NCBI GenBank assembly: GCA_946625285.1
Contig: CAMOSZ010000007.1
Location: forward strand, 1-50,822
Source: an uncultured Bacillales bacterium
GTDB taxonomy: Bacteria > Bacillota_I > Bacilli_A > RFN20 > CAG-826
DNA: 50,822 nt
Direction of reading: 5' to 3'
In this document: in pieces, positions 6,337-44,620 of the stretch
Numbering within the stretch: position 1 is the first letter of the stretch
Layout: every line of letters begins with the position of its first letter
The notes under the pieces: generated by a model
What the model was told of the DNA's origin: nothing
Databases searched by the model: none
What the model saw: only the letters and a program-made list of their open reading frames with translations
Translations under genes and position numbers: made by a program

Positions 6337-7809
6337 TTATTCCTCCGGCACTAAACTGAATGTTCTATTGGTTCCTACGTTGTTATTAGAGTAGGTCTTA
6401 AGTTTGACTTGACTGACTTCACCACTGCTGAGGATGATAACACCTGTATCGTTGATGACTTCGTTAACTGGTACAGGCATAAAGTTGCCCCATGCACTTG
6501 GGATGTAATCACCACCAGAGATATCAATCTTAAATGTTGTTTCAGAGAGATATTCGTACGTGAAGTTAACAGCATTGCCTGTACAACTGATGCAGCCAAT
6601 ACCGGAGCCAAACTCTAAGTCGATTGAAATCGAGTTGTTTTCATAATGTAAACACTTACCAGCAAGAGGATCATTACCACCAACGATGCCGATGGACCAG
6701 TTCTTACTAGTAGCAATTGCTATGTCCTCAGCTTCTAATCTGTCATAGACAGTTTGATGGATTGAGATAACCTTAGATGCTGCACCAGATAAGTCTTTTA
6801 AGTTTCTAAACATTTGAATAACTGATTCTCTGGTTAATGAGGTGCAGTTACCAAAGTTCGCATTAACATTAAAATTGCTTTGTAATGTAATCTTGCTTAA
6901 TACAGGACAATCTTGAATAGCTTCTAAAGGAATAGGCACGTTAATTGTGTTAGGGAACCAAACCTCATTTAAAAGAGGACAGTTTTTAATAACTGCAGTG
7001 CCACCACTAAAGGATGTCAATCTATCTGGTAAATAAAGCTTTTTAAGATTTGGAATACTCCAGAATGCATAGCTCGAGAGCATTCTTAAATTTGAGTTAG
7101 CACCAAAGGTGACTATTTCGCATCCACAAAAACCTAAATTGTATTGCCCCCAGCTCGAGAGCGATGAAGGGAACTCAATATCACCCAAGTTTTCAATACG
7201 GTATAAAGCACTATTTTCGAGCGTGGCCAATTGACTACCAGGTTCAAACTCAATATGCGTACAACCACTTTGATAAAAAGCATGTGCCTTAATAGTTGTA
7301 ACTGTATAAGGAACGGTCACTGCGAATTCGTTAGTGGCCTCTGCTAAGAAATTGGTTGTGATAAAACTAACTCCTTCAGGGATTTCAAAGTGATCAAATG
7401 TTCCTTCAACAAGTTGAGAAAGTAAAGCGAACTCCTCTGATGTATGAATAATCCCTAAGTTTCCTTTAAGGACTGTGGCCACTATTGGTTCAGAAGCATA
7501 GATGTAATTAGCGGTAATTGTGCTATCGCTATTAGCGACTTCATCACATGCAATAAAGCTCATCTCCCAAGCACCTTCATAAGCTGTAATTGCTTTTGGG
7601 ATTTCAAATTCGTTATTGTGAACCCTATAAAGATAAGTGGCTCTAGCGTGAGTGAATTTTAAGTAATGATATGTGCTATCAATCTCTGTATCCACATCAA
7701 ACAAGAGTTTTACTCTTTTAGATTCACGATAGACGGATATTTCAAATGGTTCTACATCTGAAGTTAGTTTGCCATCTTTACCAACGTGAATATTAATTTC
7801 ATATGCCAT
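6337..7809 (-). CDS. BspA-type leucine-rich-repeat (LRR_5-like) protein, phage cargo
   Basis: 490 aa. The central part shows about 23-25 residue repeats of the BspA type (..IEFPSSLSSWGQYNLGFCGCEIVTF..NLRMLSSYAFWSIPNLKKLYLPDRLTSF..NCPLLNEVWFPNT..). Has its own GGAGGAT SD, 5 nt after the terS stop. Confidence 0.75.
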   Translation of the reverse strand: MAYEINIHVGKDGKLTSDVEPFEISVYRESKRVKLLFDVDTEIDSTYHYLKFTHARATYLYRVHNNEFEIPKAITAYEGAWEMSFIACDEVANSDSTITANYIYASEPIVATVLKGNLGIIHTSEEFALLSQLVEGTFDHFEIPEGVSFITTNFLAEATNEFAVTVPYTVTTIKAHAFYQSGCTHIEFEPGSQLATLENSALYRIENLGDIEFPSSLSSWGQYNLGFCGCEIVTFGANSNLRMLSSYAFWSIPNLKKLYLPDRLTSFSGGTAVIKNCPLLNEVWFPNTINVPIPLEAIQDCPVLSKITLQSNFNVNANFGNCTSLTRESVIQMFRNLKDLSGAASKVISIHQTVYDRLEAEDIAIATSKNWSIGIVGGNDPLAGKCLHYENNSISIDLEFGSGIGCISCTGNAVNFTYEYLSETTFKIDISGGDYIPSAWGNFMPVPVNEVINDTGVIILSSGEVSQVKLKTYSNNNVGTNRTFSLVPEE

Positions 7810-7814
7810 TTGAG

Positions 7815-8144
7815 CTATCCTCCTATGCTATTCATAAACGCATCAAACTCATCATCTTCATCAATGACGTTCTTACCCATGATTGAATTGAGAGTTTTGA
7901 TTGCGGCTTGATATACAGTGAATGAAGTAAGAAAAGTTTTATAAGGAACTGATTGACGATAGTTTCCTTTGGAAGATTTTTGAACCGCTCCCACTATTCT
8001 TATTTCGTTTTCAAGTCTATCTAATTGGACTTTAAGAAAAGCTGCCTTTTTGAGCAGCTCGTCTACTAGTTTTGTTTTTGATTCGTCGACATCCTTAAAT
8101 AAAGAAAGAAGTCGCTCGTATTCTTTTGTAACACTGGATGTCAT
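7815..8144 (-). CDS. terS: terminase small subunit, P27-like
   Basis: 109 aa, helical, immediately after the HNH gene and a GC-rich intergenic region. This is the HNH-terS(P27)-terL arrangement typical of HK97-like cos phages. Confidence 0.65.
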   Translation of the reverse strand: MTSSVTKEYERLLSLFKDVDESKTKLVDELLKKAAFLKVQLDRLENEIRIVGAVQKSSKGNYRQSVPYKTFLTSFTVYQAAIKTLNSIMGKNVIDEDDEFDAFMNSIGG

Positions 8145-8249
8145 GGCTTCCTCCTATTTTATTTTGGCCCCACTGAAATCTGAGTTTTTGAAAATTTCGG
8201 CCTCGCGTTTTTCTGAGGTCGGGCGCATCGGTACTTTAAAAAAGTAAAT

Positions 8250-8270
8250 GGACTCGACCCGGGCGGGGGC
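8250..8270. other. GC-rich block GGACTCGACCCGGGCGGGGGC, candidate cos site
   Basis: Strong local GC spike in an AT-rich 139-nt gap between HNH and terS, the usual cos location in HNH/P27 phages. Confidence 0.3.
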
Positions 8271-8283
8271 AAATTTATTTTTT

Positions 8284-8574
8284 TTAGAATGGTTTTAAGT
8301 TTCCATCGCTGTCAAACTGACTGGCCTTCTTCTTAAAACGATTATGGCTAGCGTTGTGGCATTCACGACAAAGGTATTCGAGGTTATCAGGATTAAGTGT
8401 GATGTTTGGGTCGTTGATGTTATCAGGTGTTAAGGCTACCTTATGATGAACCTCTTCCCCTATCGCACCACATTTCTCACACCTACCATTGCACGCTGCT
8501 ATCTTTTGCTGCCTAGCTAAGAGCCAAGCACTACTCCTATAGAAGCGGTTAATAGCAGCACACTTATTTAGCAC
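8284..8574 (-). CDS. HNH endonuclease (packaging-associated)
   Basis: 96 aa; CEKCG...HHKV...N..NL..LC..CHN zinc/HNH motif. GTG start overlaps the metK-like stop. Confidence 0.85.
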   Translation of the reverse strand: MLNKCAAINRFYRSSAWLLARQQKIAACNGRCEKCGAIGEEVHHKVALTPDNINDPNITLNPDNLEYLCRECHNASHNRFKKKASQFDSDGNLKPF

Positions 8575-9358
8575 GAACTAAACCCCATTCACCAAAGCGA
8601 CGAAACCCGCCAACAGATTTAATGTAGTTTCTAGCGATTTCGACGATTTCACTATATGGTTTACCATCGACATATTCATCACCAATGGCACAACTTAGCT
8701 CAACGACCTTATTTGTCTTTTGGGCTTTTAAGAAGACATAGATATTTATTGACACATCAGCTTTGCTGAGGTCTTTACCATGTAAGCCACCACCAGTGAC
8801 TGAATCAGCCATATCGCTGCCCAATTTTCTGTTAGTCGCTCCCGTATCCACAGCTTCCGTTCCTTGCCAGTTGCCAAGTGGATTTATAACAGCTTTTTTG
8901 AAAATCTTTTTTAAATCGTCAGTATCTGCATTACTTTGACAGATAATAAGGCGGTTTTTATCTAAGACATATTTGCCATCAAAAGGATAGCCGCCGTAGA
9001 TATCCTTAGCGATTTGAGTTAATTTCTTTTGTTCTTCGGTTAAAGGCACTCCACGGAATATGCCATTATCACCGCATCTAATCTTGCCTTGTTGATTAGC
9101 ACTTAGAAGTGGATCTTGTGGAACTTCCCTATAATCGACCTTGACCTTATGGCCAACAATCTCAAATACGGCCTTTTTAATTTCTTTCTTATTTAATTTC
9201 ACGCTTGTTTCCGCGATTATATGACATTTGCCATGTCCAAGAAGGACTTCCACTGCTATTCGTGGATTCTTTTCTTTGCTATATGCCATATCTACCAAAG
9301 CACCAGCAATTGTGTCGCAAAGCTTATCTGGATGCTTAGGATTTACTTTTTCAAACAT
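8564..9358 (-). CDS. metK: short S-adenosylmethionine synthetase (MetK/MAT) homologue, phage-encoded
   Basis: 264 aa with MAT signature blocks: KHPDKLCDTIAGALVD (cf. GHPDK.[AC]DQISD), IRCGDNGIFRG (cf. GAGDQG.MFG), TGGGLHGKDLSKADVS (cf. GGGAFSGKD.[ST]KVDRS). AGGAGG 6 nt upstream of the ATG. Confidence 0.8.
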   Translation of the reverse strand: MFEKVNPKHPDKLCDTIAGALVDMAYSKEKNPRIAVEVLLGHGKCHIIAETSVKLNKKEIKKAVFEIVGHKVKVDYREVPQDPLLSANQQGKIRCGDNGIFRGVPLTEEQKKLTQIAKDIYGGYPFDGKYVLDKNRLIICQSNADTDDLKKIFKKAVINPLGNWQGTEAVDTGATNRKLGSDMADSVTGGGLHGKDLSKADVSINIYVFLKAQKTNKVVELSCAIGDEYVDGKPYSEIVEIARNYIKSVGGFRRFGEWGLVRAK

Positions 9359-9385
9359 AGTTTGCCTCCTTTTTGTTAATTTTGC

Positions 9386-9416
9386 CTATACTGAATAATC
9401 TTATTATTGAGTATAG
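9386..9416. promoter_or_regulatory. 31-bp near-perfect palindrome CTATACTGAATAAT-CTT-ATTATTGAGTATAG upstream of the metK-like gene
   Basis: 14-bp arms with one mismatch and a 3-bp spacer, 28 nt upstream of the metK-like ATG and downstream of the metQ stop. Either an operator or an RNA hairpin. Confidence 0.45.
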
Positions 9417-9511
9417 AGGTAAAAAGGCCCCTAAAAATGGGGTAAAAATACTATTTTCATAGGTATTATTAGACTCATTGGAATACATTCCTAATGAGAC
9501 AAATAATAAAA

Positions 9512-10249
9512 TCAGGCCATGTAGATGACCGAGTCACCGAACTTATTTTCGATATAAGTTTTAATACTTTCCTGCTTTAAAGCTTCAACTAAAACGCTGG
9601 TCTTTTTAGATTCTTGATTTCCGTTTTTCACAGCAATTACATTGGCCATTGTTTTAGCAATATCGGAATTCTTATCTTCAGTGATTAAGCAGCGATTCAC
9701 TACTCCTGCAGATAAAGCGTAGTTGCCATTAATAACTGCATAAGCACAATCGCTTAACATCAATGGAATGTTTTGAGCTTCGACTTGTACGAGATTAGCG
9801 GTTTGCATTCCATTTACTTTTAATAATTCCACCGCTCTATCGTAGTTGCTCTTATCACTAGAAACCAGAACCTTATCATTTGCGGCATAAGCATCTAAGC
9901 TTTTCTTGTTTCCTGAATAAATGCCCATTGGTTCAAAGTGTACATCTAACACTGGAACGAGATGCGTACCATTGCTCGCATTAAATTCATTTAAATAAGG
10001 TTTGTGTTGGAAGTAGTTAGCATCAAGCTCACCGTTTTCTAAAGCATAGTTAGGAAGGACATAATCGTTAAAGACTTTAATGTCTAATTTATAGCCTTCT
10101 TTTTCAATGTAACCTTTGGTTTGTTCTAAGATTAAAGCATGTGGAGTTGAGCTTGCTCCCACCACAATTGTTTTACTATTTTTGTTACATCCTGCTAGCG
10201 TAAGCACAGGCAAGCAGGCAAGAATAAATAATTTCAATGTTTTAAACAT
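9512..10249 (-). CDS. metQ: methionine ABC transporter substrate-binding lipoprotein (MetQ/NlpA family)
   Basis: Signal peptide plus lipobox LTLAGC; NlpA-family body (..YVLPNYALENGELDANYFQHKPYL..). ATG 10249 preferred (GGAGGG 4 nt upstream) over the track start 10261, which has no SD. Confidence 0.85.
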   Translation of the reverse strand: MFKTLKLFILACLPVLTLAGCNKNSKTIVVGASSTPHALILEQTKGYIEKEGYKLDIKVFNDYVLPNYALENGELDANYFQHKPYLNEFNASNGTHLVPVLDVHFEPMGIYSGNKKSLDAYAANDKVLVSSDKSNYDRAVELLKVNGMQTANLVQVEAQNIPLMLSDCAYAVINGNYALSAGVVNRCLITEDKNSDIAKTMANVIAVKNGNQESKKTSVLVEALKQESIKTYIENKFGDSVIYMA

Positions 10250-10881
10250 AAAACCCTCCATAATAAGAATCGAACTAGCAAGTTATTAATTATCTGAATT
10301 AGGCAAACGATAATCACGATGATCACCACGCTTTGTGCGATGATATTCCAATTAAATCTTTGGAAGCCATAAACGATTGCATAGTTTCCTAGACCACCAC
10401 CTCCAACTACTCCAGCCATTGCACTATAACCGATGATGTTTATTAAGGTGATACCAATCGCGTTAACTAAATAAGGCAACTTACATGCCCATTTAATTCT
10501 TACGATAATCTTGAGATTACTTGCTCCATCAATCTTTGCAGCTTCTATGACGTAACCAGGAATCTCAGATAAGATTTCTTCAATCAATCTAGCTTCAAAA
10601 GGAATAGCACATACCGTCAAAGGCACTATCATCGCTGTCGTTCCAATTGCTGTACCGATTAATGCTCGAGTCACAGGAAACATAAAAACGACAAGAAGAA
10701 TAAAAGGTATGCTCCTGCCCACATCAATAATTCGATTAAGAATGAAGTTAACTACCTTATTTGGAAATAATCCTCCTGGTCTTGTTTCGCTGACCATTGA
10801 GCCAATCGGCATCGCAATAATCCAAGATATAACTAAGGAAACACATGACATGTATAAAGTTTCAATCGTTGCATCTAGCAT
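10234..10881 (-). CDS. metI: methionine ABC transporter permease (MetI)
   Basis: 215 aa, multi-TM. Conserved MetI blocks RSIPFILLV, GTAIGTTAMIVPLT, PFEARLIEE, IEAAKIDGAS, GYSAMAGVVGGGGLG. AAGGAG 9 nt upstream. Confidence 0.9.
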   Translation of the reverse strand: MLDATIETLYMSCVSLVISWIIAMPIGSMVSETRPGGLFPNKVVNFILNRIIDVGRSIPFILLVVFMFPVTRALIGTAIGTTAMIVPLTVCAIPFEARLIEEILSEIPGYVIEAAKIDGASNLKIIVRIKWACKLPYLVNAIGITLINIIGYSAMAGVVGGGGLGNYAIVYGFQRFNWNIIAQSVVIIVIIVCLIQIINNLLVRFLLWRVLCLKH

Positions 10882-10946
10882 GTCATCTATCTCCTTTACA
10901 AAGTAAAAGACACCATTTAGGTGCCTATATCAGCTTTGGCTTTAGT

Positions 10947-11381
10947 CTACCAAGCTGTATTTAACCATTTAACAAGTTCTCTAGATGAGTCTGTCGCAAA
11001 CAATGGTTCATCCCAGTGACCTTCGCCATCAGGAGTTCTTCCATAAACCGCATATCTGGTCTTATTCCAGCAGCAGTCTATTTGGATGGTGAACATCACG
11101 TTACCTGTTTCGATATCCGCAAAGCGGAAGTCATCATAAAGTGGTCCATTTAATGGGCAGTTGTTTTTGAACCAGACATACCAGTTTTCTAGGTCAACTT
11201 TCCCACCACGTTTGACTTGTTTAATGATGTTACCCATCTTTTTGGTCTTGTTGGCTAAGCTTGAATCTTTGCAGAACCAGTCATACCAACCGGCTTTGAT
11301 TTGGGTTTTGACGTCATCTGCATCAAAATTACCTTCCATGAATTCATCAATCCAGCGGAAGAGTCTTAAACGGTCCATCAT
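10947..11381 (-). CDS. hypothetical phage protein (Trp/Cys-rich, 144 aa)
   Basis: Long ORF; TAATG coupling to the upstream gene; hairpin plus T-run after its stop (about 10905..10925). No family recognised. Confidence 0.6.
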   Translation of the reverse strand: MMDRLRLFRWIDEFMEGNFDADDVKTQIKAGWYDWFCKDSSLANKTKKMGNIIKQVKRGGKVDLENWYVWFKNNCPLNGPLYDDFRFADIETGNVMFTIQIDCCWNKTRYAVYGRTPDGEGHWDEPLFATDSSRELVKWLNTAW

Positions 11382-11632
11382 TACCAGCCACGCTCCTTTC
11401 TTTCAAAGTCGAAGCAGGAATCACTGTATTTCTTCCAGATTGGATTGTCTTTGATATCCTCATCTTCAAACATGCGGATGTTTGCTCGTACTTCATTAAA
11501 GTAGTTAAGCAGAGCTTCATCGCCCTTTTCTCTCCATATTTCTTTTCCATGATGGAAATAGACATATTCTTGGGTTTTCTTGTTATAACCCAATTGGTTT
11601 TCTTTCCTTTTGCCTTCAGTTACTAGGTACAT
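11381..11632 (-). CDS. hypothetical phage protein (83 aa)
   Basis: Start set at ATG 11632 (TAATG overlap with the upstream stop, GGAGGGGG about 9 nt upstream) rather than the track start 11650. Confidence 0.5.
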   Translation of the reverse strand: MYLVTEGKRKENQLGYNKKTQEYVYFHHGKEIWREKGDEALLNYFNEVRANIRMFEDEDIKDNPIWKKYSDSCFDFERKERGW

Positions 11633-11865
11633 TATTTGAGCCCCCTCCATAAAGGTTTGAGTTCAACAGGTGTGTTTTCATAGTCGATTTCGTCCATACA
11701 AATCGGCTCGTCCGTTTTAAGGGAGTCGATGCAGCCTTGGATTGTATCTAGCCATCTAGCTTCATATCCACCAGTGACATCCTTTGTTTGGTTGGTTACA
11801 CCGGCATCTTTATACCTTTGTAGTAAGGTTTCTAGGCCCTTTTTAGATCTTATTTCTTTTGCCAT
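11632..11865 (-). CDS. hypothetical phage protein (77 aa)
   Basis: ORF with AAGGAGGG SD; first gene after the palindromic operator/promoter at 11899..11925. Confidence 0.5.
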   Translation of the reverse strand: MAKEIRSKKGLETLLQRYKDAGVTNQTKDVTGGYEARWLDTIQGCIDSLKTDEPICMDEIDYENTPVELKPLWRGLK

Positions 11866-11898
11866 ATTGTGACCCTCCTTTTATCTGGTCACTATATA

Positions 11899-11918
11899 TA
11901 TCACTCTTAAGAGTGATA
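11899..11918. promoter_or_regulatory. perfect 20-bp palindrome TATCACTCTTAAGAGTGATA overlapping a putative minus-strand promoter
   Basis: Perfect dyad checked base by base. On the minus strand TTGCTA (11925..11920) lies just upstream and a TATATA/TATAGT run just downstream. 34 nt upstream of the ATG at 11865. Confidence 0.5.
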
Positions 11919-11964
11919 ATAGCAAGTTAATAAGACGCTAATTGATACAATTTCCAGCCACCAA

Positions 11965-12001
11965 TCAGGGCCAAGAAAGGACGAAGAAGAAAAGGCCCTG
12001 A
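11965..12001 (-). terminator. hairpin (8-bp GC-rich stem TCAGGGCC/GGCCCTGA, 21-nt loop) downstream of the methyltransferase gene
   Basis: Seen in sequence. The U-tract is weak (UUGGUGG), so terminator function is uncertain. Confidence 0.35.
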
Positions 12002-12067
12002 CTGATGTGAAAAGGAGGTAAAGTATATGACAGATTCATACACGCAAAAGGAATTGACTTATTTGAC

Positions 12068-13339
12068 TTATCCTAAAAAGGATTCGGTCGCAAAGTCTGG
12101 TATTTCAGAAAGAGGAATTTGCTTCCCATCTCTGAGTAAGTAGCAATCATCATCGCTACCCACAAGTTTTAAGTAACGCTTAACGATAACGTCGACATAT
12201 TTTTCATCGAGTTCCATCAAATAAGCGATCCTTTCAATTTGTTCGCAAGCTATTAAAGTCGTACCACTACCACCAAATAAATCCAATACAAGCTCACCTC
12301 TACGGCTGCTATTTTGAATAAGCTTTGTGACAAGTGGGATTGGCTTCATGGTTGGATGTAGGTCCGAAGCTTGTGGACGGTCGTATTCAAGAATGGTTGT
12401 TTGGGTTCTATCATCAACGAAATAATGAGCTGCTCCCTCACGCCACCCGAACAAAATCGGTTCGTGCATATAATGGTATGGACATCTTCCTAAAACAAAG
12501 TTGTTCTTTTTCCAAATTAAGCATTCAGATAATTTAAACCCTGCTTCTTTAAAAGCTCCACGGAAGTTATAGCCTTCTGTGTCTGCATGGAAGACGTAGA
12601 TAGAACCACCTGGTTTAATGCTGTTATAGAAGTTGACCATGACCTTATCAAGGAATTCCCTAAAGGATGAATCATCCATATCATCATTAAGGATTGTTCT
12701 ATCGGTCATGCCGCAGTCATATCCACCACGTTCTTTGTACTGTTTTCCTTTTTTGCCTATGGCAACGTTATAAGGTGGGTCAGTTTCGATTAAATCGGCC
12801 ACTTTCCCATCCATCAATTTTTCAACGTCTTCTTTTATAGTGGAATCACCACACATTAAGCGGTGTTTTCCTAAGACGTAGATGTCGCCTCTTTTGGAAT
12901 AAGGGTTTTCAGGTAGCTCTTCGTTTTCATCAAAATCATCATCTTTAGTTTCGGTCTTTAAAATCGAATCCAGATCATCAAAACCAAATTGGACCATGTC
13001 GACATCATCAAGGGCTAAAAGTTCTTCCCTTAATAAATCAAAATTCCAATCTGATAATTCACTGGTTTTATTATCGACGATTCTAAATTGACGGATTTGC
13101 TCATCGCTTAAGTCATCCGCAACGATGCAAGGCACTTCATCTAAACCTAACTTATTTGCAGCTTTTAGTCTGGTATGACCAGTAACGATGACATTGTTCT
13201 TATCAATGACAATTGGCACTTTGAAGCCATAGGCTTTAATTGAATTAGCTACAGCATCAACTGCTTTATCGTTATCCCTAGGGTTTTTGTCATAGGGAAC
13301 GAGTTCCTTAGTCTTCTTCATCACTATTGTCACTGGCAT
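12068..13339 (-). CDS. ParB-like nuclease domain fused to a beta-class N6-adenine/N4-cytosine DNA methyltransferase (orphan phage MTase)
   Basis: N-terminus LVPYDKNPRDND...VTGHTRLKAA (ParB/Srx fold); LIETDPPYNV (motif IV) precedes LDLFGGSGTTLIA (motif I). AAGGAGGA 8 nt upstream of ATG 13339. Confidence 0.85.
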   Translation of the reverse strand: MPVTIVMKKTKELVPYDKNPRDNDKAVDAVANSIKAYGFKVPIVIDKNNVIVTGHTRLKAANKLGLDEVPCIVADDLSDEQIRQFRIVDNKTSELSDWNFDLLREELLALDDVDMVQFGFDDLDSILKTETKDDDFDENEELPENPYSKRGDIYVLGKHRLMCGDSTIKEDVEKLMDGKVADLIETDPPYNVAIGKKGKQYKERGGYDCGMTDRTILNDDMDDSSFREFLDKVMVNFYNSIKPGGSIYVFHADTEGYNFRGAFKEAGFKLSECLIWKKNNFVLGRCPYHYMHEPILFGWREGAAHYFVDDRTQTTILEYDRPQASDLHPTMKPIPLVTKLIQNSSRRGELVLDLFGGSGTTLIACEQIERIAYLMELDEKYVDVIVKRYLKLVGSDDDCYLLRDGKQIPLSEIPDFATESFLG

Positions 13340-33938: not shown

Positions 33939-34012
33939 TGGTGCCTCCTGGCGGAATCGGACCACCAATAGATCCTTACCATGGATCCGTTATACCACTT
34001 AACTAAGGAGGC
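33939..34012 (-). tRNA. tRNA-Thr (anticodon GGU), CCA encoded
   Basis: Hand-folded 74 nt: GCCTCCT TA GTTA AGTGGTA TAAC G GATCC ATGGTAA GGATC TATT GGTGG TCCGATT CCGCC AGGAGGC A CCA. All four stems pair. The T-loop has C instead of U at position 55. Confidence 0.85.
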
Positions 34013-34080: not shown

Positions 34081-36516
34081 TTATGGTTTTAATCTATTAA
34101 CTAGATTATAAACAACTGTAGCCGCGACTTCTAATTCGTGGCGAGATAAATATCCACTATTAAGAGCAGCCTTAATATCCTTAATATCGGATTTTCCGCC
34201 TGGCATACAAATGTTATTACCATTCTTTATATCTCTAGAGGCGTACGCATTAGGATACTTATTGTTTTTACGATATGATTGTCCGCTCGTTACCCAATCA
34301 GTCATAACTAAACCTTTATAGTTCCATTCATCTCTAAGGATATCAATGATTAAACCACGATGTTCTGCGGAGTGAATTCCGTTAACTAAGTTATAGCTTG
34401 TCATAATTGATAATGGATTAGACCACTTAATTGCCTTTTCAAACGCTAATAAGTAGATTTCTCTCATTGCTTTTTCTGAGACTATGGAGTTGTTATTTAA
34501 ACGATTGGTCTCTTGGTTATTACATGCAAAGTGCTTAATTGTGGTCGCTTTTGTAGGATCTTCTTGAACTGATTTAATGATACAAGAAGCAGCAAACGCA
34601 GCAATAAGAGGATCTTCAGAATAGTATTCAAAATTTCTACCACATAAGATGTGTCTATGAATATTAATTCCTGGTGCGAGCCAAATATCCGCTCCATAGA
34701 GTTGCATCTCTTCTTTAACTAACCTACCACAACCACAAATAAATTCTTCGTTAAATGATTGAGCTAAGGCAGTAGCGATTGGGATCGCAGTAGCGATTTG
34801 CACTACCGTGCTTCCTTTCTTTTTGAGATTTCTTTCATAGCTCACAAAATAATCAATTGGTTTAGGGAGATAATTCTTTAATCCTTCCCAAATTGAATCT
34901 GTGGAAGTAATGAAAGCTCCATTTTTATTTAAGATATATTCTCTAGTAATTCTTAATCCAGCAGGGCCATCTACCATATTAAGAGCCTTATCTAAACTTT
35001 CTACTCTTAAGGTTGTTTCTCCTGCGCCACCTAAAAGTAAAGAACAAGATTGACCAATTAATCCTTGGAAGCCAAGTTTATAATCGCCTAACACCATATG
35101 GATTAATTCAAGATCAGTTAATCCTTTAATATATTCTGGAACATCAATATTGTATGTATTGTTATAAACAATGTTTTGAGTTTCAATCATTGAAGAGTCA
35201 ATTTCAATGACTGGTAATTTGCTACTAATTGAATTTTCTTTTCTAACAATAACTAAATCTTTAAAATCGGTTTTAGCAAAAACATTTTTAACTTTTTTGG
35301 TAACGATATCTTCTTTAACAGAAATAGCAAAAACATCCGTTAAATCTTTAGATGAATTTCCTAATTTAAATAGGTAATTGCCTTTTTCTAATAAGTAAGA
35401 TTCTTTTTCTTCGTCATATATTGGGAAATCTCTTAATGAGAGTTCTAAAGTAAGTTCTTCGCTTTCTTTAGCTCCTAAAAGTTTGCTCTTTTTAAAGGCG
35501 ACAAGTTCAAGAGCAGGACGAAAAATAGGCCCAGACATATATAGTTGAATAACTTCTTTTCCTGGAAGGCCATTAACATTAGTAACCTTAACCTTCACCT
35601 CTACTTTATCACCTTGGTTAGAAACACTGACAAATTGGTGTTTAAAAGTTGAATATGATAATCCAAAACCAAAGTTAAATAATGGAGAAATATTCAATGA
35701 AGAGAAATAACGATATCCAACATAAGTTCCTTCGTTATATCGACATTCATCTTGACTAAGTGGAGTAGAGATGTATGGGTAGTCTTTAATTAGCGCCCAT
35801 GTATCTGTTAACTTTCCACTTGGGTTACTTTTTCCTAAAACGATATCAGTAATGATATGTCCATTTAATGAACCAAGTTGAGATAATAGAAGAATATTTT
35901 TAACTTCCATTATTGGCTCTAAATCAACGATTCCAGGAACATTTAAAACAAGCATGAATTTCTCATAATTGTTATTGAGATATAAAATATCTCTTATTTC
36001 TGTATCGGTAAGATAGACACTACCTTTTTCCAAATAACGATCACTACCTTCTCCTGCAGTTCTACTTAATACATAAATAGCAACTTTATGATCTCCGATA
36101 ATTGGAAATTCATAATCTCTTTCAGGAGCGCTTTTACCCATTGAATAGCTAGCAGCGATAGTTCTATGTTCAGCAGCCTCTTTTTTAACTTTTTTAATGA
36201 AGTCTTTTTCGTTTTCTAAACGAACTTTATCGTAGCTATTAAGCCAATCTTTACTTGTAATTTCAAATCCAGCGTTTTCAAATGCTTCTTCAACATTTTC
36301 TGAGTAACGTGCATTAACCGCTCCGCTACCAGTTCCACCCATAACGGTGTATCTAACTCCATTACCAATCAAAACGATTTTGCATGGTTTTTCTAAAGGG
36401 AAAGAATCATCATCTCTTTTTAAAAAGAGAACACATTCATGAGCGTTATCTTTTAAATAGTTTAAATGCTCTAATTCATGAGGCAAATAATCGTAATTAG
36501 TCTTCATAGAGTTCAC
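34081..36516 (-). CDS. glycoside hydrolase family 3 (beta-glucosidase-like), domain-permuted
   Basis: The catalytic-barrel motifs DGPAGLRI, KHFACNNQETNR and GLVMTDWV (nucleophile Asp) lie in the C-terminal half. The sandwich-domain pattern (GGTGSGAV, EVIQLY) lies in the N-terminal half. Track start is a GTG; alternative ATG at 36507. Confidence 0.85.
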   Translation of the reverse strand: MNSMKTNYDYLPHELEHLNYLKDNAHECVLFLKRDDDSFPLEKPCKIVLIGNGVRYTVMGGTGSGAVNARYSENVEEAFENAGFEITSKDWLNSYDKVRLENEKDFIKKVKKEAAEHRTIAASYSMGKSAPERDYEFPIIGDHKVAIYVLSRTAGEGSDRYLEKGSVYLTDTEIRDILYLNNNYEKFMLVLNVPGIVDLEPIMEVKNILLLSQLGSLNGHIITDIVLGKSNPSGKLTDTWALIKDYPYISTPLSQDECRYNEGTYVGYRYFSSLNISPLFNFGFGLSYSTFKHQFVSVSNQGDKVEVKVKVTNVNGLPGKEVIQLYMSGPIFRPALELVAFKKSKLLGAKESEELTLELSLRDFPIYDEEKESYLLEKGNYLFKLGNSSKDLTDVFAISVKEDIVTKKVKNVFAKTDFKDLVIVRKENSISSKLPVIEIDSSMIETQNIVYNNTYNIDVPEYIKGLTDLELIHMVLGDYKLGFQGLIGQSCSLLLGGAGETTLRVESLDKALNMVDGPAGLRITREYILNKNGAFITSTDSIWEGLKNYLPKPIDYFVSYERNLKKKGSTVVQIATAIPIATALAQSFNEEFICGCGRLVKEEMQLYGADIWLAPGINIHRHILCGRNFEYYSEDPLIAAFAASCIIKSVQEDPTKATTIKHFACNNQETNRLNNNSIVSEKAMREIYLLAFEKAIKWSNPLSIMTSYNLVNGIHSAEHRGLIIDILRDEWNYKGLVMTDWVTSGQSYRKNNKYPNAYASRDIKNGNNICMPGGKSDIKDIKAALNSGYLSRHELEVAATVVYNLVNRLKP

Positions 36517-37795
36517 CCATCATATCGTATACAAATACACTATTAATTTTCAATTTTACTATATCACCACTTTGAAGTGGCTTAGGACTAGTAAAGAATA
36601 TTTTTCCATCAACATCATCAGGAGCGTTCCAATAGCTTCTTAAAAGATAGTTGCCGTGTTCATCTTGACCAATAACCATTCCTGACATAACTTCATCAAC
36701 ATGTTTCTTATTTAATGCATAAGAAATCTTTTGTTGAGCTTTCATCACTTTAGCGAGTCTCTTTTTCTTAACTTCTTCATCAATTTGATTAGGGAAGGAC
36801 GCTGCAGGAGTTCCTTCTTCTTGAGAATAAGTAAAGGCTCCTAAATGGTCGAACTTCACTTCTTTCATGAATTCGATAAGATTATCTACATCTTCCTCTG
36901 TTTCTCCTGGGAAGCCCACCATCACAGTGGTTCTTAAAACTGCGTTAGGAACTTTATTTCTAATTTTAGAAAATAGTTTGATAAGGAATTCCTTATCCCC
37001 TCTACGATACATATCTTTTAAGATATGTGTTTCACTATGTTGAATAGGGATATCAAAATAAGGAGTTAAGCGAGGTTCTTTACCAATTAACTCAATTAAT
37101 TCATCACTTATTTCATCAGGATATAAATATAGTAAACGAATATATTTAAATTCTTTAATCGCTAATAAACCATGTAAGAGGTCCACGATATTGACTTTTT
37201 TATCTTTAAAATCAATCCCGTATTTTGTGGTGTCTTGTTCTAAAACAATAATCTCTTTAATTCCCACTTCAGCGAGTTCTTTCGCTTCTTTAATTACTGA
37301 ATCGTAATCTCGAGAGACAAAATGTCCTCTAATAATAGGGATTGCACAATAACTGCATCGATTGTCACATCCTTCTCCAATTTTTAAATAAGCAGAATAT
37401 GGGCCAGTAGAGACAATACGATATTCATCATCCACTCCTAAAGATGGATCGATATCTTTATCAATAACAGATAACTTCTCATTAAAATGAGAATAATCTT
37501 TAATTGGGATATATAAATCAACTTCTGGAATTTCTTTTTTAAGGTCTTCTAAATATCTTTGAGCTAAACAACCAGTAACAACAACTTTCTTACCGTATTG
37601 AATCATCTCTAAGATATTTTCGATGCTCTCTTTTTTACTGGATTCAATAAATCCACAAGTATTGATAACAATAATATCTGAGTCTTTTGGATCATTAGTG
37701 ATTTCATAACCATTACGATCAAACAAACCTAAAATATTCTCGCTATCGACGCGATTCTTCATACAGCCTAAAGAGACAATGCCAACTTTTTTCAT
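36497..37795 (-). CDS. rimO: ribosomal protein S12 methylthiotransferase RimO (radical SAM)
   Basis: N-terminus VGIVSLGCMKNRVDSE, radical-SAM CDNRCSYCAIP, C-terminal TRAM-size domain, 432 aa. Confidence 0.85.
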   Translation of the reverse strand: MKKVGIVSLGCMKNRVDSENILGLFDRNGYEITNDPKDSDIIVINTCGFIESSKKESIENILEMIQYGKKVVVTGCLAQRYLEDLKKEIPEVDLYIPIKDYSHFNEKLSVIDKDIDPSLGVDDEYRIVSTGPYSAYLKIGEGCDNRCSYCAIPIIRGHFVSRDYDSVIKEAKELAEVGIKEIIVLEQDTTKYGIDFKDKKVNIVDLLHGLLAIKEFKYIRLLYLYPDEISDELIELIGKEPRLTPYFDIPIQHSETHILKDMYRRGDKEFLIKLFSKIRNKVPNAVLRTTVMVGFPGETEEDVDNLIEFMKEVKFDHLGAFTYSQEEGTPAASFPNQIDEEVKKKRLAKVMKAQQKISYALNKKHVDEVMSGMVIGQDEHGNYLLRSYWNAPDDVDGKIFFTSPKPLQSGDIVKLKINSVFVYDMMGELYED

Positions 37796-37800
37796 TAAAA

Positions 37801-40800
37801 TTACTCACTTCTTAAGGCGATAACTGGATCTTGTTTAGAAGCACTGAAGGATGGGATAAGCCCACTTAAGACACTTAAGAGGATAGAAATACCCACCATC
37901 ATGAGTGCGTAATACCAAGGTAAGGCACAAATATTACTAACACCTAAAGTAAAGACAATCGCATTAATAATGATTTGTAAAATATAGGTAACTCCGATTC
38001 CGATAGCGCCACTAGCAAAACCGGTAATCAAGTTTTCAGCAATAAATAATCTTGAGACATCTTTCTTTCGTCCACCAAGAGAACGGATAACACCAATTTC
38101 TTTAACTCTTTCCATAACAGAGATGTAGGTAATAACCGCAATCATGAAGCAAGAGACAACCAATGATAAAGAAGTAAATGCAATTAAAGCTGCACTTACA
38201 GTGGTAACTAAAGTAGAAATAGCCTCAATAATGATACTGATTGTATCACTATAAGTGATTTCACTTCTAATTTCAGGAGGTACTTCTCTTCCTTTAATAA
38301 CAAGAACGTCTTTAGAATTCCATCTATCTAAATAGCTAGTAACACTATTCTTAGTTTCAAAACTCTTTGGATAGATTTGGATTGATTGTGGAAGTTCTTC
38401 AATATCGTGAGAGATGATAATTTGATCTTCATCAGTGTGATCATTAATCTTTAATCCTGCTAAAGAACGAAGATGAATCTTATCATTCTTCAAATTATCT
38501 GAACCACTACTTAAGAAGGAAGCAAAGATAGAGGCTAACGCTGTAGAACGATTACCGTTAAGCGCTTGGGCGTAACCACGTTTTGTTTCAGGAACAAATC
38601 CTTCTTGGCCATTATCTTTTGAGTAATCATCATATTCAAATTGAACATAAGCGTTAAATTGAGATACTTTCCATCTTAAGTTTTCAATATGGTCTTTAAA
38701 TGATGCGGTAATTTGACTTGTACCAGATTGATCAATATATTCTCTAGCAAAGTCTTTAGTGAAATAGACACCTCTTTCCAGAGTGCCAAATCTAGTTGTG
38801 TCTTTTGCTCTTAAAATGCCAGACACCTTAACTTTATAACGATTATCGTTAAGTAAAGCGTTATCAGTCATAACAGCTTCGTAATAATAATCCGGAGTTT
38901 CTGGTTCTAATTCAGTAACTTTGCCGTTATTTAAAGTTGCATAATCACCAGATAATTTTCTCACGTTACAAGTAGCGACAAAGTCAGTTGTTCTAGTATC
39001 AACCTCAGTTGGGCTACCAGTAGCAAAAGTTAAAATAAAAATTTTGCCTAATGTTTCAGCGTGATCAATATAATCTTGAGGCGTAAGACTACCAACGCCT
39101 TTTCTAGATACATCAGCGATGAATTCTAAATCTTCTTGAGTGATTTCATCAGCGTTAATCATAAACCAGCTGCCTTCAATTTCACTCTTGCCATCTTGGA
39201 CAGTACGATTACCAATTCTTTGGCAGATGACATTATGCATTTTTGCATCAGTACCATTTACTTCAATTCCGTTACCTGTAAGGTTATCGCTTTCAGGAGC
39301 GTAATTTAAAGCAAGGTAATAATTACCACCACTAACAGTGGTTCCACTTAAACTAACTGTGATTTTCTTATGTGACACTAATGTTGGATTTTGTCTATAA
39401 ATCTCATCGTGAGGGAAACAATAGAATTCATGATTAAGAATTTCATCAAAATTAAATGTTGAGTTATATGGGTATTTTTGATCAAGTTGCTTGTATTCGT
39501 TTTCAAGTTTACGAATCTTTTCTTCATCAACTGGAGATTGTCTTTTGAGTTCTTCAATCTCTTTTTCGATTTCATTACCTCTCACTGCTTTCATTGCAAT
39601 GTTAATGAATTCATCTTGTGGGTAATAGCCCATCTGGGCTAACACTAAATCGGTTAATGTTGTTTTATCATCAACAACGAGTAAAAGTTCATTCTTATCT
39701 TTTGGAAATGTACCAGCGATACAATCATATTGAGATAAGAGATAATCATCTTCCGCTGGAAGTTGCTTCATAAAGCTAGTAAATAAATCAACGAATTGAG
39801 CATATGAGCTAAATCCCTTAACGGTCATTAAGGTTTTAATATATTGTTGAGTTAAACCATTCATTGAAATAACTTCGGCAGGTTCATCTTTCTTCTTATG
39901 GAAAGAAGTGAAGAAGTTATTTGTTGGATCAATTGAATAATTATAGTTAATCGCCGAATAATATGATTCTGGCATTTCAGAAACATAATCGACAAAGTCT
40001 TCGTTAATATCATTAGTCTTAACGTTAGTGAAATCAGTGTACTTATCTAGAAGATAAGCAATCATTGAATCCATTCCAACTTTTGTGGAAGTATCAAATT
40101 TTTCGAGTTCTTTACTATCTTGATTTCTAAGTCCGGTAAGTAAAGAAGTAACATCCACTGTTTCTTCAGCGACACCGATAGGATAGGCGCTTAGCATATC
40201 ATTTTCCATAGAATGGATATAATCGTTAACACCACAAGAGACACCTAAAATTGTCGAAACGCCGATAATGCCAATGCTTCCTGCAATTGCGACTAATAAT
40301 GTTCTTCTAAACTTTGACCATAAGTTAGAAATAGATAAAGCGGTCGCAGTAAAGAAAGACATTGAAGATTGTTTCTTGCCTTTATTTTCTACAACTTCTA
40401 CTACTTCTTGAGTGGAAATAGCCTCATCTTCTCCATTATATGGATTAGAGTCATCATATATTTCTCCGTCTTTCATCTTCACAATACGAGATGCGTATTT
40501 AGAAGCGAGTTCTGGGTTATGAGTAACCATGATAACAAGGTGGTTATTAGAAACTTCTTTAAGTAAATCCATGATTTGGAGAGAAGTTTCACTATCAAGA
40601 GCGCCAGTTGGTTCATCTGCTAAGACGATTTCTGGATTGTTGACTAAGGCTCTAGCAATCGCCACTCTTTGCATTTGACCACCAGACATTTGGTTTGGTT
40701 TTTTATAATATAAGTCTTTAAGTCCGACTTTATCTAAAGCCTCTTTAGCGAGTCTCGTTCTTTCTTCTTTTTTCAGTCCTGCAATCGTTAAAGCGAGTTC

Positions 40801-41115
40801 AACATTCTTTAGTACTGTTTGATGTGGGATTAAGTTATAAGATTGGAAAACAAAACCAATTGAGTGGTTTCTATATGTATCCCAATCACTATCGTTATAA
40901 TTCTTAGTGCTTATACCTTTGATGATTAAATCACCTTCATCATAGTGATCTAATCCACCAGTAATATTTAAAAGCGTGGTTTTACCACAGCCTGAATGTC
41001 CTAATATCGCAACAAATTCATGCGCTCTGAAGTTTAAAGAAATTCCTTTAAGAGCATGGACCGGTTCTTGATCTTTTAGAGCGTAATCTTTTTTGATGTT
41101 TCTAAGTTCTAACAT
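37801..41115 (-). CDS. fused ABC transporter ATPase plus FtsX/MacB-type permease with a very large extracytoplasmic domain
   Basis: GHSGCGKTTLL, MSGGQMQRVAIARAL, VLADEPTGALD. One TM near residue 270, then about 650 aa, then the C-terminal FtsX-like TM bundle. ATG 41115 (GGAGG 8 nt upstream) preferred over the TTG at 41121. Confidence 0.88.
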   Translation of the reverse strand: MLELRNIKKDYALKDQEPVHALKGISLNFRAHEFVAILGHSGCGKTTLLNITGGLDHYDEGDLIIKGISTKNYNDSDWDTYRNHSIGFVFQSYNLIPHQTVLKNVELALTIAGLKKEERTRLAKEALDKVGLKDLYYKKPNQMSGGQMQRVAIARALVNNPEIVLADEPTGALDSETSLQIMDLLKEVSNNHLVIMVTHNPELASKYASRIVKMKDGEIYDDSNPYNGEDEAISTQEVVEVVENKGKKQSSMSFFTATALSISNLWSKFRRTLLVAIAGSIGIIGVSTILGVSCGVNDYIHSMENDMLSAYPIGVAEETVDVTSLLTGLRNQDSKELEKFDTSTKVGMDSMIAYLLDKYTDFTNVKTNDINEDFVDYVSEMPESYYSAINYNYSIDPTNNFFTSFHKKKDEPAEVISMNGLTQQYIKTLMTVKGFSSYAQFVDLFTSFMKQLPAEDDYLLSQYDCIAGTFPKDKNELLLVVDDKTTLTDLVLAQMGYYPQDEFINIAMKAVRGNEIEKEIEELKRQSPVDEEKIRKLENEYKQLDQKYPYNSTFNFDEILNHEFYCFPHDEIYRQNPTLVSHKKITVSLSGTTVSGGNYYLALNYAPESDNLTGNGIEVNGTDAKMHNVICQRIGNRTVQDGKSEIEGSWFMINADEITQEDLEFIADVSRKGVGSLTPQDYIDHAETLGKIFILTFATGSPTEVDTRTTDFVATCNVRKLSGDYATLNNGKVTELEPETPDYYYEAVMTDNALLNDNRYKVKVSGILRAKDTTRFGTLERGVYFTKDFAREYIDQSGTSQITASFKDHIENLRWKVSQFNAYVQFEYDDYSKDNGQEGFVPETKRGYAQALNGNRSTALASIFASFLSSGSDNLKNDKIHLRSLAGLKINDHTDEDQIIISHDIEELPQSIQIYPKSFETKNSVTSYLDRWNSKDVLVIKGREVPPEIRSEITYSDTISIIIEAISTLVTTVSAALIAFTSLSLVVSCFMIAVITYISVMERVKEIGVIRSLGGRKKDVSRLFIAENLITGFASGAIGIGVTYILQIIINAIVFTLGVSNICALPWYYALMMVGISILLSVLSGLIPSFSASKQDPVIALRSE

Positions 41116-41194
41116 TTTCAAGACCTCCTTTGTCGAATATGTAAATATGTTATCTTTTTACATAAAAAATGTAAATTGAAATACATTTTTATCA

Positions 41195-41228
41195 CAAAAA
41201 GAAAAAAGCAAGACAATAAATCTTGCTT
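41195..41228 (-). terminator. rho-independent terminator
   Basis: Minus strand: AAGCAAGA-UUUAUUG-UCUUGCUU followed by UUUUUCUUUUU. Confidence 0.75.
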
Positions 41229-41245
41229 GATACTATTTGATTTTT

Positions 41246-41707
41246 TTATTTGCTTTTAATCATTTCAATGTTTTGTAAAATCTCTTCTTTGGTCTTAAAT
41301 TTTGCTTCAATAACACGACGGTTAAAAGCGAAATAGATATAAGTATAAATGACATCAACAAACAAAAAGAGGAAGGCTGGTAAAAGGAAGGCAATCGCGT
41401 TACTAGTTAAGTCAAAGTTTTCTTTTTGTTCCGCAAATAAAATAACAAAGACTGATAGAAGAACAAAGGCAAACACTACAAGAAGAATAATAGGGACAAA
41501 TGTTGGTCCTCGACGATATAACTTTTTAGAGTATTCTTTAAGTTCTAAATAGTGAGGTGCATTTTCATCTATTTCATAGACTACGTGAGCGTTAATCCCT
41601 TTTTCAATGCAGCTAATCTCTTTATATCCAAGAGCCTCGTAGATTTCTTTTCTTTCACGATATTGAGGAATTGTTAGTTTAATCTTTTTGCGAATCATTA
41701 TTATCAT
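41246..41707 (-). CDS. small membrane protein, unknown function
   Basis: 153 aa with two hydrophobic segments (PIILLVVFAFVLLSVFVILF; AFLLPAFLFLFVDVIYTYIYFAF). Overlaps the acyltransferase gene end. Confidence 0.65.
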   Translation of the reverse strand: MIIMIRKKIKLTIPQYRERKEIYEALGYKEISCIEKGINAHVVYEIDENAPHYLELKEYSKKLYRRGPTFVPIILLVVFAFVLLSVFVILFAEQKENFDLTSNAIAFLLPAFLFLFVDVIYTYIYFAFNRRVIEAKFKTKEEILQNIEMIKSK

Positions 41708-42503
41708 CCTCGACTTTCACATATTTGATGTATTCATATTGAGGAACACTATTAGCGAATTCTTGCATCGCTCTAAGAGTTTCATCATGTAGATAAGTTT
41801 TATTTTCAGTAGCGGTCTTTCCTTCAAGAGGGAAGATAGGCTCAAGAATATAGACTGTTTGTCTAGGAATTTTACCAATTAATGGTTTTCTCCAAGTAGT
41901 GACAACTGGGACTACTGGAGCATTACACTTTGCAGGGTAATTAAATGATCCATCTCTAAATGGTCTAATCTTTGTGTAATATGGCCAAATATGAGCTTCT
42001 GGATAGATGAGAATATGCTGTTTCTTTTTGATATAAAATTCCATCGCATCCATTAAAGCAATTGCGTTTTTAAGATCTCCTTTTAAAGGAAGGGGGAGAT
42101 AGCCTAACGCTCTAGTAAGATTTCTCACTATCGGCATGCTTAATGAATCACTATATCCAAGGATATTAATTCTTCTAGCAAAGAAGAACACTAATGTTTG
42201 GAATTTAAATACATCACTAATAGAGACATGGTTAGAATAAAAGAAAGCTCCTTGACCTTTAATAGCTTTTAAATTCTTTCTATTTTTGATACGTATTCCG
42301 TGGAATATACAGAAAAGCGCAAATATTGGTTTAGCAATTCCATGATAGAAAATACCTGAGATGATGTTATTAAAGAAATTGGTTCTTTTATATTTATATC
42401 CTTCTGGTACAGGAGGACGAGATAAACCAACTTCATTAAAATCATCACGAAGTTCGTCTTTATAGTAAGCAATTTTTGTCTTTTTAACTTCTCTGAAGTT
42501 CAT
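41679..42503 (-). CDS. lysophospholipid (1-acyl-sn-glycerol-3-phosphate-type) acyltransferase
   Basis: HX4D motif NHVSISD, later IYPEAH; about 270 aa. Confidence 0.75.
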   Translation of the reverse strand: MNFREVKKTKIAYYKDELRDDFNEVGLSRPPVPEGYKYKRTNFFNNIISGIFYHGIAKPIFALFCIFHGIRIKNRKNLKAIKGQGAFFYSNHVSISDVFKFQTLVFFFARRINILGYSDSLSMPIVRNLTRALGYLPLPLKGDLKNAIALMDAMEFYIKKKQHILIYPEAHIWPYYTKIRPFRDGSFNYPAKCNAPVVPVVTTWRKPLIGKIPRQTVYILEPIFPLEGKTATENKTYLHDETLRAMQEFANSVPQYEYIKYVKVEDDNNDSQKD

Positions 42504-42505
42504 AG

Positions 42506-43813: not shown

Positions 43814-43850
43814 ATATTAAATAGTATACCAAATTGAATTTTTAATTCAA

Positions 43851-44537
43851 TTAATCTTTTTTAGGGTGCTTGAAAAAGTCACGGTAAATAACCGCATATA
43901 AAGAAGTAACAAATCCTGCTAATAAGTAGCCAGCAATGATATCGCTTAACCAATGTCTTCCGCTTAAGAATCTAACAAATCCCACTAAAAGGACTAAGAA
44001 TACAATTAAAACAATTGTCAAAATTCTAAGAGGTCTCTTTTCAATTGGAATCATATCGATAGCGGTTAATGTACTACAAATATAGAAAACTGTAGCGACA
44101 AACACGTGAGTGGATGGATAAGATGGTTTTAATTTATCTTCCACCATAGGTGAATAGTTAATTCTTACTACTTCAAAAGCGAAATATAAAATAACTACCG
44201 CAACATATGTTGCAAAAAGAATGTAATATCTTCTATCAACTGCTTTAAAGGATTTGTTTTTGATGATTTGGAAAATTGTAACTCCAGTAAAACCAATAAC
44301 AAATGCGAAAGAGAGATATAAAACAATATCGCTGAGTGTTTTTGCAAAATCAGATTTATTAAGTGATTCTGCCCAATCACGAGCAACACTATTCATTGAA
44401 TAGAAGCCAATATAGTAATTGAGTTCAGAAGTTCCAACTGAAATATATCGAACATCAACGGTCTTAACTAAGACTGTAAAGATAACAAATAATATGAGAA
44501 TCGAGATTGGTGCTAACCAATATAAGTATTTTTTCAT
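43851..44537 (-). CDS. PAP2-family membrane phosphatase
   Basis: PSYPSTH and SGRHWLSDIIAG motifs; multi-TM. Confidence 0.8.
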   Translation of the reverse strand: MKKYLYWLAPISILILFVIFTVLVKTVDVRYISVGTSELNYYIGFYSMNSVARDWAESLNKSDFAKTLSDIVLYLSFAFVIGFTGVTIFQIIKNKSFKAVDRRYYILFATYVAVVILYFAFEVVRINYSPMVEDKLKPSYPSTHVFVATVFYICSTLTAIDMIPIEKRPLRILTIVLIVFLVLLVGFVRFLSGRHWLSDIIAGYLLAGFVTSLYAVIYRDFFKHPKKD

Positions 44538-44544
44538 AAAAGAA

Positions 44545-44600
44545 AACCCTAATATATTTACTCACATAACGCGTTTGTGCGCAAGAGTTATATTAGGGTT
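44545..44600 (-). promoter_or_regulatory. perfect 12-bp inverted repeat AACCCTAATATA / TATATTAGGGTT around a 32-nt structured loop; terminator or translational regulator
   Basis: Arms at 44545..44556 and 44589..44600. On the minus strand the stem is followed by UUCUUUU and then the PAP2 ATG, and the only purine-rich SD-like bases (AGGG) lie inside the stem. Confidence 0.5.
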
Positions 44601-44620
44601 GATTAATTATTTAATCAAAA

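Follow-up and report, generated by a model that had tools for sequence, protein, structure and literature searches.

The window analyzed here is the whole of contig CAMOSZ010000007.1 (50,822 nucleotides [nt]; contig C7 of genome G000), from assembly GCA_946625285.1 of an uncultured Bacillales bacterium, which comprises 1.18 Mb in 127 contigs and is 77% complete. The first ~23.5 kb of the window are phage DNA, with a G+C content of ~0.39 versus 0.34 in the host part. Within this region lie genes for two parts of a methionine ATP-binding cassette (ABC) importer. The metI gene (positions 10234 to 10881, minus strand) encodes a methionine-type permease of 215 amino acids, and metQ (positions 9512 to 10261, minus strand) encodes a methionine-binding lipoprotein of 249 amino acids. 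A preliminary description of this DNA had reported clear MetI and MetQ homologs inside a phage; both open reading frames (ORFs) were confirmed at these positions, with phage genes on both sides and on the same strand. The two genes overlap by 28 nt, or by 16 nt if metQ begins at its second ATG (position 10249), the start chosen by gene callers in other assemblies, which yields a protein of 245 amino acids and leaves out positions 10250 to 10261. After a gap of 153 nt, metQ is followed by a gene for a compact, MetK-like S-adenosylmethionine (SAM) synthetase of 264 amino acids (positions 8564 to 9358, minus strand). As described below, metI and metQ are maintained intact in many related phages, and the gene for the cognate ATPase, MetN, was found in none of the phage-type loci.

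Both proteins are assigned to their families by sequence. MetI scored 52.1 bits against the permease domain PF00528 (cutoff, 26.4 bits). Its best NCBIfam family was MetI NF008049 at 177.7 bits, which is under the 212-bit cutoff, and the next family, PhnE, reached 63 bits. MetQ matched PF03180 at 183.7 bits and was likewise under the curated NCBIfam cutoffs (94.3 versus 228.85 for TIGR00363, and 97.6 versus 374 for NF008285). The MetQ signal peptide ends in PVLTLAGC, an LAGC lipobox with the lipoprotein cysteine, and this feature is kept in most phage copies shown. The predicted MetQ model is confident (predicted local distance difference test score of 87.8) and has the two-lobe MetQ fold, with template modeling scores of 0.78 to structure 4ib2 and 0.73 to 0.80 to other MetQ structures, methionine-bound ones included. 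The residues that contact methionine in the Neisseria meningitidis protein (NmMetQ) are Y81, F98, H100, Y103, R156, N213, and N238 (PMC6739813). The seven counterparts in the window's MetQ, matched by motif and spacing rather than by direct alignment to NmMetQ, are Y63, F80, H82, Y85, R138, N176, and N203, and all are invariant in a 30-sequence alignment. Lobe 2 is shorter than full length, as a deletion of 19 to 21 amino acids is common to all phage-type copies.

The MetK-like protein carries the PF00438 N-terminal domain and matches phrog_1569 at 8.7e-66. Its predicted model has a predicted template modeling score of 0.78, and methionine adenosyltransferase structures account for all 50 matches listed. 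The catalytic motifs HPDK.CD, GDNG, and GGG.HGKD.SK.D are invariant, and fold and motifs together predict SAM synthetase activity. On the other side of metI, separated from it by three small minus-strand ORFs, is a ParB-N-domain/N6-N4 DNA methyltransferase gene (positions 12068 to 13339, minus strand; PF01555 at 100.5 bits plus PF02195; phrog_498 at 1.7e-156), whose product is a likely consumer of SAM. The compact metK is widespread in the phage backbone, where its immediate neighbor is usually a gene for a ParB-type DNA methyltransferase. The latter lies directly downstream of metK in loci L017 to L019, L026, and L027, as well as in many phages with metK but without metIQ, and several metIQ phages have the order metI-metQ-metK-methyltransferase-terminase. 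In one sublineage (L020, positions 8090 to 9388, and also L021), a cytosine-5 DNA methyltransferase (Dcm) of 432 amino acids is encoded upstream of metI and overlaps its start, giving the order Dcm-metI-metQ-metK. The most divergent phage-type cassette (L029, positions 9310 to 11990; MetQ 51% identical) has no metK; there, metQ is followed directly by a ParB-type methyltransferase gene that is apparently divided between two ORFs, of 237 and 190 amino acids.

The preliminary description had treated metI and metQ as forming a unit with the adjacent MetK-like gene. Indeed, the unit is conserved, and metI-metQ-metK are syntenic in nearly all related loci. The order was found in 17 IMG/VR contigs from 13 metagenomes, with MetQ identities of 51 to 96% and with an unrelated terminase in some contigs, and in 14 genome contigs from rumen "Bacilli"/Erysipelotrichaceae metagenome-assembled genomes (MAGs). 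In a large protein database, the 245-amino-acid form of MetQ is represented by more than 120 protein clusters at 71 to 98% identity. The 28 to 30 recovered copies (30 for MetI) are all full length, without stops or frameshifts, and thus none showed the inactivating changes that the preliminary description had named as grounds for abandoning its claim. The median pairwise ratio of nonsynonymous to synonymous substitution rates (dN/dS) was 0.06 for MetI, 0.12 for MetQ, and 0.125 for MetK; synonymous sites were close to saturated. The phage MetI proteins form one clade (support 100/99) on a long stem of 1.49 changes per column, the core phage MetQ proteins likewise form one clade (support 99), and the nearest cellular MetQ proteins found are at most 46% identical to the phage MetQ. 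We infer that the cassette was acquired once, entering immediately upstream of the compact SAM synthetase gene that belongs to the phage, and was then retained by selection in a family of temperate phages of small-genome rumen Bacilli.

Several records encountered in these searches require comment. Two contigs, L121 (JAVETX010000040.1, from a "Sulfurimonas sp." MAG) and L119 ("Oscillospiraceae"), place the Bacilli phage cassette in bins of unrelated taxa, which is probably a binning error and not a wide host range. The goat reticulum MAG RGIG3315 (JAFSNY01) has four contigs with phage-type metIQ (L120, L122, L125, and L127), whose MetQ proteins are 72 to 78% identical to that of the window; this bin is a collection of several related phages or strains. 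Candidate relatives in the GenBank phage collection were rejected: matches were at most 47% identical, and those examined were host DNA with a complete metNIQ or a scrambled fecal contig with MetN. One such record, L196 (PV200784.1, "Staphylococcus phage ISU935"), is at positions 34357 to 47169 ordinary Staphylococcus aureus chromosome, with suf, gcvH, and a complete metNIQ. It is labeled a complete phage genome, its prophage limits look too wide, and similar host fragments are present in the phage collection.

Where a cellular relative has metI adjacent and its sequence extends far enough upstream, metN is nearly always alongside. Among 31 phage-type loci, there was no match to MetN. The preliminary description had noted that no ATPase gene accompanies metI and metQ, with the proviso that a metN might lie elsewhere in the prophage. 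A search of five viral records over their whole length, including a provirus rated 100% complete, did not find one; these records contain no real ABC_tran domain, the sole matches being at most 15.4 bits (cutoff, 25 bits) in an open frame of ~780 amino acids. In the window, the only match to the MetN model TIGR02314 is a host MacB-like fusion (positions 37801 to 41121), outside the phage part.

The hosts were surveyed in genome G000, in 22 other species-level genomes of its genus, and in a sample of 400 genomes of the order. Five lysogens were found: G000, G011 from the genus, and G277, G301, and G397 from the order sample. No NIL domain and no MetN orthologue was found in G000, where the best matches were generic or fused ATPases with 29 to 39% identity. 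Matches to MetI, MetQ, or NIL occurred in only 1 of the 22 other genus genomes, G011, which holds both the prophage cassette (contig C36) and a chromosomal metN-metI-metQ (contig C86); the other 21 have none of the three. Likewise, the NIL domain is absent from G277 (96% complete), G301 (93% complete, in three contigs), and G397 (86% complete), and in G277 and G301 there was no MetN-like match above 40% identity. MetN was thus found in one of the five lysogens. The preliminary description had offered, as one possibility, that the phage proteins hijack the host MetN. Because MetN is absent from most of the hosts checked, it cannot be the general power source, and the proposal fails in its general form.

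In type I importers, the permease docks on the ATPase through its cytoplasmic EAA loop. We compared this loop between phage and cellular MetI proteins. In 56 cellular MetI proteins from many phyla, it reads (V/I)D.G..EAAxxMG, and the residue before the conserved G is M in 52, L in 3, and F in 1; this MetI-type signature was derived here from those 56 proteins and is not a curated definition. All 26 distinct phage MetI proteins instead read (I/V)P....EAAK(I/V)DGAS, with D before the conserved G and without the MetI-type signature. The loop of the window's MetI is IPGYVIEAAKIDGASNLKIIVRIKWACKLP. Among cellular MetI proteins, conservation is higher in the loop than outside it (identity of 0.57 versus 0.49), whereas between phage and cellular proteins it is lower in the loop (0.32 versus 0.41), falling to 0.19 at residues 121 to 135. 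Within the phage clade, the dN/dS of the loop is 0.075, compared to 0.087 for the rest, which is strong purifying selection. Since the docking loop has been remodeled and yet is constrained, its sequence suggests a change of ATPase partner.

The pattern IP....EAA..DGA is that of the sugar (CUT1-type) permeases of the host, for example EAAKIDGAGNFRIMV, and host sugar permeases carry EAAKIDGAG and ESAKIDGAN. Phage MetI proteins matched host sugar permeases with a median of 37.7 bits, compared with 27.5 bits for cellular MetI proteins. Recombination with a host sugar permease was considered as the source of the loop and rejected, as the identity is only 29 to 43% and hence there was no recent swap. 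G000 encodes at least three MalK-type ATPases (ABC_tran plus OB_MalK plus TOBE_2), among them one on C52 at positions 692 to 1972, and G301 encodes one, on C1 at 843.9 to 845.4 kb; a sugar-importer operon in G301 has no ATPase gene within 11 kb. In light of these two features, the supply of an ATPase in trans looks ordinary in these hosts. Tentatively, and with well under even confidence, we propose a change of partner: after the loss of MetN, the docking loop of the phage MetI was reshaped, and the permease now draws its energy from the MalK/MsmX-type ATPase that sugar importers of the host share.

Two other routes to a partner ATPase were tried and abandoned. A 241-amino-acid ATPase at 587 kb in G301 belongs to an ABC-2 exporter and has its own membrane partner of 567 amino acids, and the G000 assembly is too fragmented for calling orphan ATPases from gene neighborhood. 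Two of the MalK-type ATPases of G000 (C16, positions 1529 to 2998, and C81, positions 11736 to 13220) are unusually long, at 489 and 494 amino acids; one has a charged N-terminal extension of ~70 amino acids, and the other has an insert in the ABC domain and a lysine/glutamate-rich tail.

The limits of the insert were defined with two related phages, L110 and L055, that have the same backbone and no metIQ. Homology with these phages ends at window position 10932 and restarts at 9510, so the insert spans positions 9512 to 10931 (minus strand) and consists of a hairpin, a ribosome-binding site, metI, and metQ. The empty site in L110 and L055 is 227 nt with a small ORF in place of metIQ. The upstream backbone neighbor of metI is an ORF of 144 amino acids (positions 10947 to 11381, minus strand) that has no family match and is kept in related phages with and without the insert. 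Between this ORF and metI is a terminator-like hairpin (positions 10908 to 10926, minus strand), followed by AAAGGAG and then the metI ATG; the preliminary description was accurate in giving the 144-amino-acid ORF and then a hairpin, which we see at positions 10947 to 11381 and 10926 to 10908. A hairpin-bearing leader before metK (positions 9359 to 9511, minus strand) belongs to the phage backbone, outside the insert, and is homologous to the region upstream of metK in L110 and L055.

Upstream of the cassette, no riboswitch was found at an E value of ≤1, and no S-box or T-box element; directly upstream of metI there is no consensus promoter match, and promoter-like sites are rarer than in shuffled sequence. 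From this arrangement, metI and metQ are probably read through with their phage neighbors. They are also probably expressed in lytic growth, because they lie in a same-strand block that runs into the packaging genes and have no riboswitch or promoter-like site directly upstream. On the same strand upstream of metI are genes for DUF2800, an Enc34-type single-stranded-DNA-binding protein, PolA, VapE, SNF2, and DUF1492, in addition to the ParB-N6/N4 methyltransferase. On the other side, the MetK-like gene is followed, again on the same strand, by an HNH endonuclease gene that starts the packaging block (positions 8284 to 8574, minus strand; PF01844; phrog_119), by genes for a leucine-rich-repeat protein and TerL, and by more ORFs common to related phage contigs. 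The leucine-rich-repeat protein is a BspA-type protein of 490 amino acids (positions 6337 to 7809), encoded between terL and the small ORFs after the HNH gene, and is 62 to 88% identical in related phages. After the phage early genes there is an AT-rich block of defense-type genes (23.5 to 33.6 kb), with a tRNA-Thr (GGT) at its far end (positions 33939 to 34012). No integrase was seen in the window.

We favor, with about even confidence, a reading in which the cassette functions in methionine uptake and thereby supplies the SAM synthetase and DNA methyltransferases of the phage, with energy provided in trans by an ATPase of the host. In most hosts, that ATPase would not be MetN, and a MalK-type protein is the leading candidate. 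In the proposed mechanism, lipoprotein MetQ would bind methionine at the cell surface and hand it to a MetI dimer. The imported methionine would be converted to SAM by the phage MetK, and SAM would then be used by the phage DNA methyltransferases (the ParB-N6/N4 enzyme and, in some relatives, Dcm), such that phage DNA is modified before packaging. Energy would come from a host ABC ATPase in trans, the best candidate being one of the MalK/MsmX type that is probably already serving sugar permeases encoded without an ATPase.

Several points weigh against this reading. To our knowledge, a permease energized by the ATPase of another ABC family is undocumented, and the sharing of MsmX, MsmK, and MsiK is known only from sugar importers. 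A canonical MetK of 389 amino acids is already encoded by the host, and the phage's need for an extra supply is an assumption. Incompleteness of the genomes limits certainty about the absence of MetN from the hosts, G000 being only 77% complete. The deletion in lobe 2 of MetQ could change docking or function. In the phage clade, the EAA loop is no better conserved than the rest of the protein (identity of 0.81 versus 0.85), and the shift toward the sugar-permease consensus is modest, with a mean loop identity of 0.31 to sugar permeases and 0.32 to MetI proteins. Furthermore, the phage clade is one lineage and thus one evolutionary event, so that the loop counts are not independent.

An alternative that we consider unlikely is that MetI and MetQ have a surface role other than transport, as for other phage lipoproteins, for example in superinfection exclusion, receptor masking, or methionine sensing. 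Such a role would fit the lack of an available ATPase in the phage or most hosts, and the long stem of the MetI clade, the remodeled docking loop, and the lobe 2 deletion could all be taken as signs of a new function; the matching PHROGs families are listed as of unknown function. However, none of the seven residues that contact methionine varies, the two proteins always occur together, and their place beside metK and the methyltransferase genes is conserved. The strong purifying selection on the EAA loop also argues against a surface role, as does the location of the cassette in the block leading to the packaging genes and not in a lysogeny module.

Slightly less likely again is that the phage MetI and MetQ plug into the host's own MetN. 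The lysogen with a chromosomal metN-metI-metQ offers an instance in which this could happen, the core of the loop (EAA...G) is kept, and genomes without MetN could be incomplete. Against this stand the host survey, in which the best MetN-like matches are 30 to 40% identical and lie in fused or otherwise assigned ATPases, and the loss of the docking-loop signature (VD...MG) from all phage copies.

Uptake without any ATPase is improbable, and we rate it lower still. Here, a MetQ-gated MetI would pass methionine down its gradient, and MetK would trap it, with ATP, as SAM. The tight linkage of metI, metQ, and metK speaks for this model, as do the failure to find a cognate ATPase in the five viral records or most lysogens checked and the remodeling of the docking loop. 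However, no type I ABC importer is known to work without an ATPase dimer, the strong constraint on the cytoplasmic EAA loop is not required by the model, and L029 keeps metIQ without metK. Lastly, the captured operon fragment or assembly chimera that the preliminary description had entertained can be set aside as very improbable: the missing metN and the scores under the NCBIfam cutoffs would suit a passive remnant, but the copies are intact, under strong purifying selection (dN/dS of 0.06 to 0.12) at near-saturated synonymous divergence, and in a clade of their own, while a chimera is excluded because the same junctions recur in dozens of independent assemblies, with the G301 prophage integrated at the end of a 934-kb chromosomal contig.

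The cellular counterpart of the uptake module favored here is the MetNIQ (or MetNPQ) methionine ABC importer, TC 3.A.1.24, for which structures of the Escherichia coli MetNI-Q complex are available (PDB 6CVL and 7MBZ). The phage cassette resembles it in having a MetI-type permease (MetI being the best NCBIfam match), a two-lobe MetQ/NlpA lipoprotein, the seven methionine contacts, and the metI-metQ order. It differs in the absence of MetN from the element and from most hosts, in the loss of the family signature from the docking loop, in a MetQ that is 19 to 21 residues short in lobe 2, in the lack of an S-box/T-box leader, and in its low identity (at most 46%) to the cellular MetQ proteins found. 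Our literature search found no description of phage-borne metIQ.

For the energy source, the relevant systems are the shared ATPases of sugar ABC importers, namely MsmX in Bacillus subtilis, MsmK in streptococci, and MsiK in Streptomyces, in which one MalK-type protein energizes ATPase-less operons in trans. The hosts here are similar in having MalK-type ATPases and a sugar-importer operon without its own ATPase. That sharing takes place within the CUT1 sugar family, whereas use by a MetI-type permease would cross families. A strongly conserved pair of permease and binding protein that lacks the cognate ATPase, and whose docking loop has been rebuilt, amounts to a natural experiment on the specificity of the permease-ATPase interface. 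If true, the switch to a MalK/MsmX partner would be an example from nature of an ABC permease that has recruited the ATPase of a different transporter family, and a phage could in this way equip a host lacking the entire system with a new nutrient importer.

With respect to SAM, a report on "Candidatus Heliusvirales" gives a phage SAM synthetase (K00789/phrog_1569) in 58.9% of the genomes, together with DNA methyltransferases (PMC11283538). The 264-amino-acid MetK of the window belongs to the same phage family and also accompanies DNA methyltransferases. The arrangement here differs in having metI and metQ upstream of metK, in a subset of rumen phages only, and ABC transporters go unmentioned in that report (PMC11283538). 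That the cassette is physically coupled to genes for a SAM synthetase and DNA methylases of the phage suggests that the supply of methionine limits phage DNA methylation, and hence restriction evasion, in small-genome rumen bacteria.

The closest functional precedent, by analogy, would be the PstS of cyanophages, a phosphate-binding protein that is encoded by the phage and joins PstCAB, a transporter of the host (bioRxiv 10.1101/2021.07.20.453049). In both cases, some components of a host-type ABC importer are phage encoded and the host supplies the rest, raising the uptake of a needed nutrient, which for the present cassette is predicted from the genes. Unlike the cyanophages, the phages described here bring the permease as well as the binding protein and would borrow only the ATPase, the host is usually without a cognate system, and the substrate would be methionine, with a link to SAM and the methylation of DNA. 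Auxiliary genes of phages usually contribute a single enzyme or a single binding protein to a pathway that the host already has; here, two of the three parts of an importer are brought into hosts that mostly do not have that importer.

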